DNA from: a virus
Lineage: Duplodnaviria; Heunggongvirae; Uroviricota; Caudoviricetes
Length of the DNA stretch: 64,000 nucleotides
IMG/VR virus record: IMGVR_UViG_3300042922_001018
Direction: 5' to 3' (one strand)
Made by a program: the position numbers and the translations under genes. Below the pieces are notes generated by a model. The model did not search any database and was not told where the DNA came from. It saw only the letters and a list, made by a program, of their open reading frames with translations. Positions 17,967 to 34,646 of the stretch are shown here, one piece after another. Every line of letters begins with the position of its first letter. Position 1 is the first letter of the stretch.

Positions 17967-18038
17967 TGGAGAGGGTGGGACTTGAACCCACATCCTTACG
18001 CTGAAGAACGCGTTGCTCTGAACCTGAGCTACCTCCCC
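17967..18038 (-). ncRNA. tRNA-like RNA with irregular anticodon arm
   Basis: Normal acceptor, D and T arms; ACGC/GCGT stem closing 8-nt GTTCTTCA. Confidence 0.7.
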
Positions 18039-18126
18039 GAGGACTGGCGGGCAAGCGCCCGCCAGCTAGAGCAAAGCTCTACGTGAACAGTGTAGCACAC
18101 GCGGAATGCTCCATAGTGGATGAAGT

Positions 18127-18327
18127 TCAGAGGGGTCCGTGCTCAGCTTCCCAAGCCGCCCACTCTTCTGGGGTCTTCGGTCGTTCGCGTTCGAGCCAGT
18201 AGTCGAGCGTACCGTCTTCGTACGCCTTCTTGACTTCCAGGTACGTGTCGTAGCGACCGAGACCCACTCCGACATCAACGCCCGCGTCGAACTGTGGGTC
18301 GCTGTGCGGCTTCTGCATGTCTGCCAT
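18127..18327 (-). CDS. small hypothetical protein
   Basis: MADMQKPH...; GAAAGGA RBS. Confidence 0.6.
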   Translation of the reverse strand: MADMQKPHSDPQFDAGVDVGVGLGRYDTYLEVKKAYEDGTLDYWLERERPKTPEEWAAWEAEHGPL

Positions 18328-18341
18328 ATCGTTCCTTTCTG

Positions 18342-18415
18342 TGCAGCTAAGAGGACTTGAACCTCTGACCTCCACCGTGTCAAGGTGGCGCTCTAACCGC
18401 CTGAGCTATAGCTGC
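18342..18415 (-). tRNA. tRNA-Val(GAC)
   Basis: Cloverleaf; loop TTGACAC. Confidence 0.92.
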
Positions 18416-18768
18416 GTGATGCCCTAGCGAGCGACGCTCGCGTCGGACTTCACATGCGTTCGGTGAACGATGTGATGCCCTTGGAGCCTGCGCCGCGGTC
18501 GGCTCCAGAAGCGGTGAGCAGGGACTTTGCTCCCGGTGGACAGCCCGCACCTCCGCGGAGGTCGTTGCAACAGCAGGCCGTTAGTTCGCCAGAGACAACT
18601 CACACCCACCCCGCGCTCTGACAGACGGATTGTGGGAGAGCTACGACACGACACTCGACTTGTCCTCGTCGTGTTGCAGCCGTCTACAGCCTACCACGCG
18701 TGGTAGACATTGTGCCCTAGCGAGCGAAGCCCGCACCGGACCCGACATGCGGCCGTTGGCCGATGGTG

Positions 18769-18841
18769 TGCCCTCGACAGGAATCGAACCTGCGACCTCT
18801 GGTACCGGAAACCAGCCTTCTATCCACTGAAGTACGAGGGC
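18769..18841 (-). tRNA. tRNA-Arg(CCG)
   Basis: Cloverleaf; loop TTCCGGT. Confidence 0.9.
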
Positions 18842-18896
18842 AAAGGAAAACGCGGCCCGGTATCTAATCGGACCGCGTCTCCACCCCACGCCCCTT

Positions 18897-18971
18897 GATT
18901 GCAAGAGGGGACTTGAACCCCTGGCCCATACGCCTTGTGGCGTCGCTCTTCCAACTGAGCTACAAGCAATC
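18897..18971 (-). ncRNA. tRNA-like RNA with 4-nt loop in place of anticodon loop
   Basis: Good D and T arms; ACGCC-ACAA-GGCGT. Confidence 0.72.
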
Positions 18972-18997
18972 GCAGGATGTGGAGTTATTGCGAGGGT

Positions 18998-19064
18998 GAG
19001 AGACCCTGGGATTCGAACCCGGCGCCCGAAGGCGCTTCACCCGCGTGCTCGCGTTCAGTCTCTC
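18998..19064 (-). ncRNA. minimal tRNA-like RNA with UUCG-capped arm
   Basis: GAGAGAC/GTCTCTC stem, GGGTTCGAATCCC T arm, GCGCC-TTCG-GGCGC hairpin. Confidence 0.6.
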
Positions 19065-19142
19065 GGCCGAATGGTTACAGCCATCCGGTTGTATCGCCCG
19101 CTGTAACGAGCGACATGTACAGCGTACCACACGTCTCAGACA

Positions 19143-19412
19143 TCACTGTCGTTCGTCGGAACGCTCGTTCAGGAAGGCGTGAAGCGCCTCATCGGACACC
19201 TTCGCGCGTACCGTCCGGGCATGCACCCAGCGCTTGATGTGGTTGGCATCATTCCACAGACCGCGGAACGCGGCGGGGAGGAAGTAGAACAGCGGCAGGA
19301 GAATCCAGAAACCGCCTGGCAGCCCGTTGTAGAGGAGGGGCATGGCGAAAATCCCCAGGAGCAGGGTCGCGATGAAAGTGGCTACGGGCCACCGTGACAT
19401 GAGCGCGCGCAT
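19143..19412 (-). CDS. small membrane protein
   Basis: 2 TM; TGGTACACT-N6-ATG. Confidence 0.65.
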   Translation of the reverse strand: MRALMSRWPVATFIATLLLGIFAMPLLYNGLPGGFWILLPLFYFLPAAFRGLWNDANHIKRWVHARTVRAKVSDEALHAFLNERSDERQ

Positions 19413-19443
19413 AGGGCGAGTGTACCACGGTTCCGCCGAAAGC

Positions 19444-19759
19444 GAACACACCTGTAAGCCGGGTTCTGTCCAGGACGCGAGTCCCTGGGCTGCCATCTTT
19501 CTGAAGCGCAGAGCGCCCCGCGGCTTAGCCGCTGCCACTTACCCGTCCATCATCGAGGCACGACGCCCTAGGACTGTTTGTGTTGCACCGGTCCTCACCC
19601 TACTTCTTAGGCTGGGCTTAGTGGTATGAAGGTGTCAAGTTCGGCACGTTAGTCACCGAATCAGTAACCAACGTGCCGACTCTGACACTCCCACATGGAT
19701 GTCGTGTTGGTGCCCGGACTTTCCTCAACGCTTATGCGCTGCGACAGCCTGGTGTGTTC
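19444..19759 (-). ncRNA. rnpB: RNase P RNA with atypical specificity domain
   Basis: GAGGAAAGTCCGGGC and GACAGAACCCGGCTTA universal P4 motifs; P1 GAACACACC/GGTGTGTTC; P5 GCACC/GGTGC. Confidence 0.92.
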
Positions 19760-19837
19760 TGGAGGCGCTGACGGGATTTGAACCCGCGATTGTACGGTTT
19801 TGCAGACCGTTCCCTTTGGCCGCTCGGGCACAACGCC
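19760..19837 (-). tRNA. tRNA-Cys(GCA)
   Basis: Cloverleaf, U73, encoded CCA. Confidence 0.93.
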
Positions 19838-19842
19838 GTGTA

Positions 19843-33005: not shown

Positions 33006-33078
33006 TGGAGACGAGGGGAGTCGAACCCCTGACCTTCTGAATGCCATTCAGACGCGCTACCAACTGCGCCACGCCCCC
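33006..33078 (-). tRNA. tRNA-Ala(GGC)
   Basis: G3:U70; loop ATGGCAT. Confidence 0.93.
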
Positions 33079-33082
33079 ATAA

Positions 33083-33193
33083 CCTACCGTCTCGTTCATA
33101 GAGCCAGCCCGCTCTGCCGATTGAGCTACCGCCCCTTAGAGGAGCGAATGGGACTCGAACCCACAACCGGCCAGCCGTGCACGATACGGCAAG
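33083..33193 (-). ncRNA. YrlA-like Y RNA (circularly permuted tRNA mimic)
   Basis: Long terminal stem, then T arm, acceptor stem closed by CTA loop, then D arm. Confidence 0.85.
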
Positions 33194-33250
33194 TCCCTCC
33201 AACGCTCCGGAGCGCTGGGTTGAATCGAACGCTTGCAACCGTCCGACCAG

Positions 33251-33324
33251 TCGGGATAACAGGATTTGAACCTGCGACTTCTCGCTCCCAAAGCGAGCGC
33301 TCTACCAAGCTGAGCTACACCCCG
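33251..33324 (-). tRNA. tRNA-Pro(TGG)
   Basis: Cloverleaf; loop TTTGGGA. Confidence 0.93.
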
Positions 33325-33563
33325 ATGTGAGCTGTATCGGGCATCCCCGCCGGACTTCTCGCGTGTCGCAAGACACGCGATTCACCGGAGCGACTTCATC
33401 ACGGGGTTCGCGCCCTAAGGGTACGCGTTACCGCGACTGGTCACTGTTCATGAACACGTGGAGTCCAAACCTTTAGGCGCCCGTCGGCCCCTGTCAAGGT
33501 CTGTCGCTCCTCCGCCTTGGAGCACGCCCGTTACCGGGTCGAGGTGAGTGTTCATCACCACCG

Positions 33564-33636
33564 TGGAGCCTAGGAGATTCGAACTCCTGACATCCTGCTT
33601 GCAAAGCAGGCGCTCTACCAACTGAGCTAAGGCCCC
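33564..33636 (-). tRNA. tRNA-Ala(TGC)
   Basis: G3:U70; loop TTTGCAA. Confidence 0.93.
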
Positions 33637-33878
33637 ATTCGGTTCAGGAAGATGCGAGACTCGGCCTTGCTCACGGGTGCCCCCGCGAACTACCTCCACT
33701 CGACGCTGTGTTCTGTCTTCCATCGCCTAGAAGTTGTCGCACCGTTCCATCATCCCGGCAACCCCTTGCGGGACCAGTCGGAGAATCGAACTCCCCGGAA
33801 ACTTCAACTTCCTAAGCACGAGCGTACCATGCATCCACATCGTACGCAAGTCGAGAACTCGATGAGTCTCGAAGAATC

Positions 33879-33957
33879 AAGGGAGCGCGCTCTTATGCCG
33901 ATTGCACCACCCCGCCCGACCGGGCGGGGACGGGACTCGAACCCGTATCTCTCCCTT
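33879..33957 (-). ncRNA. compact circularly permuted tRNA mimic (YrlA-like)
   Basis: AAGGGAG/CTCCCTT ends; T arm; CCCCGCCCG/CGGGCGGGG closed acceptor; D-like segment last. Confidence 0.75.
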
Positions 33958-33959
33958 CG

Positions 33960-34033
33960 TCTGGGTAACAGGATTTGAACCTGCGACCTCCGCGTCCCGA
34001 ACGCGGCGCTCTACCAAGCTGAGCCATACCCAG
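33960..34033 (-). tRNA. tRNA-Pro(CGG)
   Basis: Cloverleaf; loop TTCGGGA. Confidence 0.92.
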
Positions 34034-34226
34034 TCATCGAATGGTCAGACGCCCTGTCGAACAGGTTCGGCCCTGGTCACTCCGGACTCGCAAGCTGTTT
34101 TCTGATTTCACTCGACTTTACAGTTCCACGCGGCGAACTCCCCATCCACGGCGCTCACCGTGACCGAGGAGTGGACCCCGGCGCCGTACACTAGCGCGGA
34201 GCTACTTGCGCTAGGTGTCGAACTTG

Positions 34227-34300
34227 CGACCCTGACGGGACTTGAACCCGCGACCTCCGCCGTGACAGGGCGGCACGCTAACCAACTGCGCTACAGGGCC
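34227..34300 (-). tRNA. tRNA-Asp(GTC)
   Basis: Cloverleaf, G73. Confidence 0.93.
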
Positions 34301-34377
34301 ATAGGCGGACCGAAGTGTCAACCCGCCATGGCAACACCCTAACGTGGGTGTCAGACGACAACCGAATGGTTGCACTG

Positions 34378-34451
34378 CGAGACCGACGGGACTTGAACCC
34401 GCGACTTCCACCGTGACAGGGTGGCACTCTAACCGACTGAGCTACGGCCCC
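34378..34451 (-). tRNA. tRNA-Asp(GTC)
   Basis: Cloverleaf, G73. Confidence 0.92.
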
Positions 34452-34572
34452 AGAGAACGACAAGTAGTGGTGCATCCCGCCTGCGCCCCATTCAGGCGCG
34501 CCGACCCATATAGGGCCGAAGGCACTTCTCGTCGCAGGAACAGTCCACGATGCACTCGCTCGCCGTTCTTTG

Positions 34573-34646
34573 TCGCCCACGCTGATTTCGAGTCAGCGAC
34601 CTCCGTCCCCCTATGGGACGGTGCTCTACCTCTGAGCTAGTGAGCG
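34573..34646 (-). ncRNA. tRNA-like RNA with 9-nt anticodon-position loop
   Basis: CCGTC-CCATAGGGG-GACGG; T loop CTCGAAA. Confidence 0.68.

Follow-up and report, generated by a model that had tools for sequence, protein, structure and literature searches.

A tRNA array of a soil actinobacterial replicon contains tRNA-derived RNAs that are very probably selected and do not decode

Introduction

Irregular tRNAs organised in polycistrons occur in Acidobacteria, where the anticodon arms are kept (PMC5389517), and the YrlA RNA of M. smegmatis is a permuted tRNA mimic with a 7-bp acceptor that is cleaved by RNase P and receives CCA (PMC4201824). The locus described here belongs with the tRNA L-arrays (PMC8421152). 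It occupies about 19 kb of the minus strand in IMG/VR record IMGVR_UViG_3300042922_001018, of which a stretch of 64,000 nt (the window) was analysed. Among its canonical tRNA genes stand about 19 tRNA-derived modules which, judged from comparison with related arrays, are very probably selected RNAs without a role in decoding. An earlier note, made from the letters alone, had listed about a dozen of them as elbow-preserving tRNA-like RNAs with altered anticodon arms. Our literature search, which was incomplete, found no paper on so many conserved non-decoding tRNA scaffolds with RNase P, signal recognition particle (SRP) and transfer-messenger RNA (tmRNA) genes on one element. The orthologues show which part of a tRNA is selected in genes usually dismissed as pseudogenes or mis-called. 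The units thus form a test set for factors that read the top half of tRNA without the anticodon, and they bear on why mobile elements carry tRNA arrays.

Census and classes of the tRNA-derived units

Relatives of the array were found through homologues of one gene inside it and one adjoining gene. These relatives, designated B to J (W, the window), come from other metagenomes and are complete or fragmentary arrays in synteny with it. A strict T-arm scan of the array detected 15 T arms outside the ARAGORN calls, against a null mean of 0.62 (maximum 3 in 100) per 19 kb. A T-arm-like hairpin was present on the minus strand at all 13 coordinates of the earlier note, and 11 of these passed the strict scan with a TTCRANY loop; the T stem of 30048 is bulged and 34573 has a C at position 54. 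Twelve of the 13 proved to be tRNA-derived. The other, 33770, lacks a D arm and a tRNA-like acceptor and is merely a T-loop hairpin. The units did not form the single class that had been assumed. Four kinds were distinguished, and six related modules had not been listed (21601, 29230, 30190, 32714, 33081 and 33870), four of them permuted. Units are named below by a coordinate at or near their start.

The first class comprises cloverleaves with a free anticodon loop, to which 29041 belongs loosely:

17967–18038, minus strand: unit 17967, cloverleaf with alanine identity (G1-C72, G2-C71, G3-U70, A73); six orthologues
18898–18969, minus strand: unit 18897, cloverleaf with conserved D and T arms and a loop of 4–6 nt
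22708–22778, minus strand: unit 22708, cloverleaf with a 1-72 mismatch in 8/8, C8, C73 and a short D loop
24453–24560, minus strand: unit 24453, with covarying D-like and anticodon-like stems, a loop of 7–8 nt and a variable arm, preceded upstream by a conserved hairpin; absent in B
29041–29122, minus strand: unit 29041, with an acceptor, a T arm, a D arm that forms poorly and a variable arm in the anticodon position; absent in B
34573–34645, minus strand: unit 34573, cloverleaf with a 6-bp acceptor, G73 and a C54 T loop; absent in C

The second class comprises acceptor/T-arm scaffolds that enclose other helices:

18997–19064, minus strand: unit 18998, whose acceptor has 8 bp and T stem 4 bp, with a variable middle hairpin and, at the D position, an invariant hairpin of 4 bp
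26512–26612, minus strand: unit 26512, an acceptor-like helix and T arm around variable hairpins, with a second T-like hairpin at 26579
26946–27020, minus strand: unit 26946, an acceptor-like helix and T arm, one long covarying hairpin replacing the D and anticodon arms; W, B, C, D
27024–27120, minus strand: unit 27024, a T arm, long covarying hairpin and short hairpin with a weak acceptor; W, B, C, D
30572–30757, minus strand: unit 30572, Leu-like scaffold with a 7-bp acceptor, D arm, T arm and an insert of about 115 nt; W, B
32714–32979, minus strand: unit 32714, scaffold with D and T arms and an insert of about 190 nt; W, B, C

The third class is circularly permuted, opened in the D loop (29945), at the anticodon (21601, 33081, 33870) or with the T arm first (29230):

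21601–21763, minus strand: unit 21601, T arm, insert of about 110 nt and D arm, the ends pairing at the anticodon stem
29230–29312, minus strand: unit 29230, T arm first, directly after the tmRNA; W, B, C, D
29945–30098, minus strand: unit 29945, with a T arm, a covarying closed acceptor and an insert of about 60 nt; W, B, C
33081–33192, minus strand: unit 33081, YrlA topology, with a 7-bp closed acceptor and G3-U70 in 3/3; Rfam YrlA 37.5 bits, E 1.1e-6, gathering threshold 69
33861–33963, minus strand: unit 33870, second YrlA topology; Rfam YrlA 22.6 bits, E 0.87; orthologue in B, diverged in C

The fourth class comprises T-loop hairpins within other folds:

30190–30262, minus strand: unit 30190, two tandem T-arm hairpins sharing one junction
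33745–33805, minus strand: unit 33770, T-loop hairpin inside a conserved three-way junction

The elbow is preserved in part of the set. G18G19 was found in 18897, 22708, 24453, 34573, 30572 and the permuted units; it is absent in 17967, 18998 and 29041, and 26946 and 27024 have no D arm. Units 22708 (22709 in the earlier note) and 24453 have a 7-nt loop in the window, and only from the relatives does it become visible that this loop is free. Across the set, the anticodon slot is occupied by a short drifting loop in 17967, 18897, 22708, 24453, 29041 and 34573 and by a cargo hairpin or domain in 18998, 26512, 26946, 27024, 30572 and 32714; in 21601, 33081 and 33870 it is the point at which the RNA is opened, with 29230 and 29945 opened elsewhere. 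The set may well have more than one job.

ARAGORN mis-called odd units as tRNAs, naming three of them Phe, Thr and Leu. No anti-Shine-Dalgarno motif was found in the unit inserts, and a search for antisense partners gave only three 11-nt complements, which is chance level; the one that was checked was not conserved.

Evidence for selection

Gene order of the array was maintained across the relatives, at protein identities of 50–82% and with 0.32–0.48 of 4-fold degenerate sites identical (saturation about 0.34). Despite this saturated synonymous divergence, the unit bodies were 90–100% conserved. All 19 modules had an orthologue in at least one relative, each unit being represented in 2–8 lineages.

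The selected part was located in the four cloverleaf units 17967, 18897, 22708 and 34573. Compared with the window, their D stem and T arm were 0.93 identical, equal to canonical tRNAs, whereas the anticodon interior was 0.56 identical against 0.95 in canonical tRNAs. With disjoint pairs, used to limit pseudo-replication, the D stem and T arm again gave 0.93 for both mimics and canonical tRNAs, and the anticodon interior gave 0.62 versus 0.97 (Fisher p 8e-20). The contrast was significant singly in three units (p 5e-6 to 7e-4); 34573 supplied one pair, which gave no contrast. The hallmarks of a canonical anticodon arm (7-nt loop, U33, conserved anticodon) were thus not retained, loop lengths ranging from 4 to 8 nt.

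Of 30 substituted stem pairs in the four units, 27 kept pairing and 18 were compensatory, against a random expectation of 12.2 ± 2.7; the count is indicative, since pairing guided the parsing of the stems and the lineages share ancestry. The earlier statement that the stems remain paired, which had been taken to argue against random decay, therefore holds across relatives. Decay into tRNA pseudogenes was considered, since some units are not present throughout (B lacks 24453 and 29041, and C lacks 30572 and 34573) and three genes of the Anabaena L-array are unexpressed pseudogenes (PMC8421152). With the units conserved in synteny and stem changes preserving pairing, random decay fits poorly, and pseudogenes are a highly improbable explanation of bodies that change by compensation at saturated synonymous divergence.

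Cloverleaf units and the fate of the anticodon

Unit 17967 is the final unit of the array, about 45 nt ahead of a protein operon. It has a 4-bp D stem without G18G19 and a 4-bp anticodon stem with a freely varying loop, and both stems are kept in 6/6. Relative to the window, its orthologues were 95% identical in the body and 34% in the loop interior, which is the neutral level; in the alignment 99.2% of cells were paired, with three compensatory pairs.

The 8-nt loop reported for 17967 was present in five of the six orthologues. The stem below it has 4 bp, and because D and T are separated by the canonical 23 nt, the RNA has no net extra base. The loops comprised four different 8-nt sequences and one of 5 nt, with no fixed U33. 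The 9-nt loop ascribed to 34573, which has a 6-bp acceptor, is in fact a stem of 7 bp closed by a loop of 5 nt, or of 4 nt in relative B. The proposal that 8–9-nt loops mark frameshift or quadruplet-reading tRNAs, to which the frequency of the 8-nt loop in 17967 lends some colour, is hence scarcely credible, as loop length and sequence differ among orthologues and no quadruplet is conserved.

The loop evidence also bears on the suggestion that the units bait anticodon nucleases of the PrrC, VapC or AriB type. Rapid loop change could reflect an arms race. However, anticodon nucleases (PrrC, VapC, PARIS) recognise the sequence of the anticodon loop (PMC12851939). In the present units no part is less conserved than this loop, which varies from 4 to 8 nt, has no stable U33 and in 17967 is as divergent as neutral sequence (0.34). 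Such bait is accordingly disfavoured for most units and very improbable for the set; 29945–30098, with an invariant anticodon-like arm and a blocked acceptor in three genomes, is a possible exception.

The conserved acceptor of 17967 raises the possibility of aminoacyl carriers or sinks outside translation, in which 17967 (and 33081 after RNase P cleavage) would be charged by alanyl-tRNA synthetase (AlaRS) and would donate alanine non-ribosomally or titrate SmpB or AlaRS. G3-U70 and A73 were present in 6/6 copies of 17967 and G3-U70 in 3/3 copies of 33081. The loss of G18G19 is as in staphylococcal non-proteinogenic tRNA-Gly (PMC4052509), and a TLD-like RNA inhibits tmRNA (PMC4131195). In Rfam, 17967 scored 50.1 bits for tRNA and 30.4 for tmRNA (tmRNA gathering threshold 47). 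On the other side, this RNA keeps a strong EF-Tu-contact pair (G51-C63 in 6/6; G49-C65 in 5/6) and, unlike a TLD, a true 4-bp D stem. The protein matches of the window included no Fem or aminoacyl-lipid synthase family, the other units have no stable identity set, and at most two or three units would be accounted for. As a general explanation it is quite unlikely.

RelA requires a codon-paired tRNA in the A site, and T-box roles need specifier pairing; indifference to the anticodon speaks against both. Of the modulators that had been envisaged, those of RelA are therefore unlikely; recognition by a synthetase is plausible for 17967.

For 18897, the 4-nt loop was borne out in the window. Its acceptor, lengthened by a purine(−1)-U73 pair, was only 33% identical yet mostly paired, which suggests that it is kept for shape alone. 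Unit 22708 adjoins a tRNA-Met at 14 nt, and its anticodon loop varies between 6 and 8 nt among orthologues, the anticodon changing with it. Unit 34573 adjoins two tRNA-Asp genes. An Asp-like unit is present in B and C and absent from the window.

Scaffold and permuted units

The UUCG hairpin noted in 18998 is present in the window, and is specific to this genome. Unit 26512 ends 9 nt before the SRP RNA, and its interior is shrunken in D and nearly lost in B. Unit 30572 is a full scaffold of D arm, T arm and acceptor enclosing its insert; in C it is replaced by an unrelated insertion. A competing internal pairing was tried for 30572 and rejected, because it has two mismatches in relative B, where the long-range acceptor is retained. 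Within 32714–32979, a sub-threshold match to LOOT RNA (33.6 bits, E 1e-4) lies at 32836–32941 on the minus strand.

The T-arm-like hairpin at 30048 belongs to the 5′ part of the permuted unit 29945–30098. The anticodon-like arm of the latter is an invariant 5-bp stem and 7-nt loop in three genomes, with G33 and centred on CAC (Val), an anticodon that is missing from the canonical set.

Three of the permuted units run T arm before D arm with paired ends, and 21601 shows three compensatory D-stem variants among eight copies. This topology is that of Y RNAs, and the permuted units could be Y RNAs that bind Ro60/Rsr of the host or encoded elsewhere on the replicon. The two Rfam YrlA matches (37.5 and 22.6 bits) and the compensatory D stems agree with this. 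An ARAGORN call of tRNA-Thr(cgt) within 33081–33192 was dismissed as false, the site being a permuted unit of YrlA topology. Both scores are below the gathering threshold (69), however, and the Ro60-binding motif GNCGAAN0-1G has one match, in the window copy of 33870, which is absent in its orthologues. A YrlA gene almost always has a Ro60 gene within 4 kb, and no TROVE domain was found in the 69 open reading frames of the window. Since the idea also includes no cloverleaf unit of the earlier note, it is improbable as an account of the set.

The array and its replicon

17966–36897, minus strand: tRNA/non-coding RNA array of about 19 kb, with 48 canonical tRNAs, tmRNA, SRP RNA, RNase P RNA, about 19 tRNA-derived modules and about 8 kb of further conserved non-coding DNA
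19439–19760, minus strand: RNase P RNA, class A like, with the P4 core present and the specificity domain shortened; Rfam 91.5 bits, E 2.4e-28, gathering threshold 100
26412–26503, minus strand: SRP (4.5S) RNA, Rfam 40.4 bits, at gathering; conserved in B, C and D
29315–29701, minus strand: tmRNA, complete (ARAGORN)
18080–18100, minus strand: extended −10 promoter-like site before unit 17967, by motif match and conservation in B, C, D and H
56187–57410, minus strand: RtcB RNA ligase (Pfam PF01139, E 2.4e-107)

ARAGORN returned 53 tRNA calls and the tmRNA on the minus strand of the array. The calls at 17966, 18897, 22708, 33139 and 34572 are odd units; the remaining 48 are canonical tRNAs that cover all 20 amino acids and carry GG in register in the D loop in 48/48. 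As only 4 of 51 ARAGORN calls in the array have an encoded CCA, its lack is uninformative. The catalytic core of the RNase P RNA is kept in B, C and D; a hairpin region of about 47 nt is missing in B and D, and there is no recognisable elbow-reading module. This RNA had no match in the plasmid collection. The spacers between named RNAs (about 8 kb) were 75–93% alignable and 76–77% identical in the relatives, so the array as a whole is dense in structured RNA; many more structured RNAs are predicted there, for example at 26780–27200, 30270–30410, 30770–31100 and 33640–33745.

Conserved extended −10 promoter-like sites occur on the minus strand at 25306, 19427, 19129 and 18097. A custom promoter motif gave 9 matches, no more than the null maximum (mean 3.8, maximum 9), and only these four conserved sites were therefore used; as putative promoters they would divide the array into sub-operons. 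A sigma-70 and terminator scan of the array was at chance level.

Among the canonical genes, tRNA-Gln(UUG) (21194–21265, minus strand) has G33 in place of the near-universal U33, in an arm identical in the window, B, C and D; it is possibly a nuclease-resistant variant. Three tRNA-Leu genes (27199–27272, 27883–27956 and 31869–31943, minus strand) lack the long variable arm. Directly after unit 17967, at 16151–17921 on the minus strand, three proteins with lipoprotein-like signal peptides (judged by eye) are encoded, an order kept in relatives.

The window (62% GC) is part of a contig of 450,372 bp, which we call a mobile replicon of soil actinobacteria; phage and plasmid are both possible. Three soil metagenome runs contain nearly the entire contig and may be where it comes from. 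Phage-type genes in the window include RIIA and helicases, and a ribonucleotide reductase and a DarG-like macrodomain are also encoded. The RtcB gene lies 19 kb from the array on the same replicon, and its product is 64–68% identical to RtcB of Curtobacterium and Arthrobacter megaplasmids. No relatives of the array were found in viral_contigs or the GTDB genomes, phage and plasmid collections gave matches to single tRNAs only, and an upstream protein had no match. In six plasmid arrays from Curtobacterium, the Arthrobacter group, Tsukamurella and Mycolicibacterium there was no module orthologue, and extra T arms numbered 0–5 per array versus 12–17 in this family.

Several relatives carry insertions. 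Nuclease genes of PD-(D/E)XK or similar type stand in their arrays (L004:6757–6847, L010:3824–3914, L008:7258–8083), each preceded by a duplicate of the 5′ portion of a tRNA gene. In D, the tmRNA 3′ end (T arm and acceptor strand) is duplicated about 95 nt downstream (L010:400–520), resembling an integration scar. In a more distant relative, an EF-Ts gene adjoins a histidine phosphatase gene (L032:3338–4165).

A proposed processing and stability handle, and the decoy alternative

The pattern implies that whatever factor retains the units recognises the T arm and a helix with no regard to the anticodon, which excludes decoding and frameshifting. RNase P and the 3′ maturation enzymes match such a factor. 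We tentatively favour, at somewhat under even odds, the reading that the tRNA top half (T arm, acceptor-like helix and often the D arm) serves as a processing and stability handle. Transcription of the array would start at several internal promoters. The units would then be excised by enzymes that recognise tRNA shape and ignore the anticodon, namely RNase P, 3′ trimming nucleases, and CCA-adding and T-arm modifying enzymes. The fold would act as a processing signal and a nuclease-resistant scaffold, defining the ends of neighbouring RNAs and stabilising inserted helices. The RNAs given ends in this way would be the SRP RNA, the roughly 8 kb of unnamed conserved RNA and the operon behind 17967, and the dead anticodon would bar the product from decoding. 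Unit 17967 is probably also alanylated, and 33081 perhaps after cleavage.

The replicon encodes its own RNase P RNA and the spacers are conserved at 76–77%, so the array holds cargo in need of ends. The acceptor of 18897, paired at 33% identity, is what recognition by shape, not by sequence identity, would predict. Departures from the decoding norm include 6- or 8-bp acceptors and the fixed 1-72 mismatch, and the scaffold and permuted units look like natural tRNA scaffolds around cargo. The earlier suggestion of processing signals that punctuate the polycistron thus stays plausible as part of the favoured reading.

Several observations weigh against it. The 48 canonical tRNAs already punctuate the array, and extra cuts beside them look redundant (22708; the neighbours 18998 and 18897). 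Several acceptors are closed or extended and are not simple RNase P substrates. Sequence conservation of 17967 exceeds the needs of processing, yet G18G19 is lost. Overall identity of the mimics (77–81%) is barely above that of other spacer DNA, so the case for them is the contrast inside each unit. Finally, a unit is represented by as few as two lineages and at most eight, and the stems were parsed by seeking pairing.

An alternative that uses the same conserved half is that the units are trans-acting decoys. They would absorb host toxins or defence effectors whose hold on tRNA is through the acceptor stem, T arm or CCA end, such as Cas12a3, toxSAS enzymes (for example FaRel2) and nucleotidyltransferase or acetyltransferase toxins. 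Decoys of this kind would be immune to anticodon cleavage and harmless to decoding. Ordinary viral tRNAs are said to offer little escape from effectors that grip the acceptor and T arm. FaRel2 selects tRNA by the acceptor stem (PMC11559606), and L-array tRNAs have been suggested to act as a sponge (PMC8421152). RtcB and the DarG-like macrodomain lie on the same replicon, and the units span a range of acceptor sequences. Nevertheless, the 48 canonical tRNAs would serve just as well as bait, permuted or closed units would need processing to expose a free CCA end, and both target toxin and host would be hypothetical. Decoys have a low but appreciable probability. About as unlikely is a version in which the array is a natural library of anticodon-less scaffold decoys, each with its own partner through the cargo helix. 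The handle remains the reading that we prefer.

Comparison with known systems

Like the L-arrays, the locus is long and confined to one strand, covers all amino acids and shares its element with rtcB; its relatives contain endonuclease insertions, and the setting is likewise actinobacterial. It differs in combining 48 tRNAs with tmRNA, SRP and RNase P RNAs, and its odd genes are very probably selected, whereas those of L-arrays were reported as unexpressed pseudogenes (PMC8421152).

The YrlA Y RNAs (RF02553; PMC4201824) share the permuted T-acceptor-D topology with 33081, 33870 and 21601, and the 7-bp closed acceptor with 33081. Unlike YrlA, 33081 and 33870 are sub-threshold, the Ro60 motif is not conserved and no Ro60 gene occurs in the window; the remaining units are opened elsewhere or unpermuted. 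TROVE is absent from Curtobacterium plasmid pS16.

A TLD-only tmRNA lacks the D stem. Unit 17967 resembles that of mycobacteriophage DS6A (PMC4131195) in its small size, alanine identity and lack of a usable anticodon. It differs in having a 4-bp D stem and a stem-loop in the anticodon position, and the replicon also has a complete tmRNA. With staphylococcal non-proteinogenic tRNA-Gly (PMC4052509), 17967 shares the loss of G18G19 and an intact acceptor identity. The staphylococcal RNA weakens the EF-Tu pairs 49-65 and 51-63 (A49-U65, A51-U63), which 17967 does not, and in 17967 the anticodon is lost; no Fem gene was seen among window matches.

Allo-tRNAs and irregular tRNA polycistrons (PMC5389517) likewise show odd acceptor/T geometry and polycistronic organisation, and some probably take no part in translation. 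Allo-tRNAs have a 12-bp branch with a long acceptor (8/4 or 9/3) and retain the anticodon arm, and many of them function in translation. In the array, an 8-bp acceptor together with a short T stem occurs in 18998 alone, which has no anticodon arm. The tRNA-Other of Bacillus cereus is likewise a tRNA-like RNA without a role in translation and has a phenotype; unlike the array family, it is a single gene of a chromosomal island (PMC3399842).

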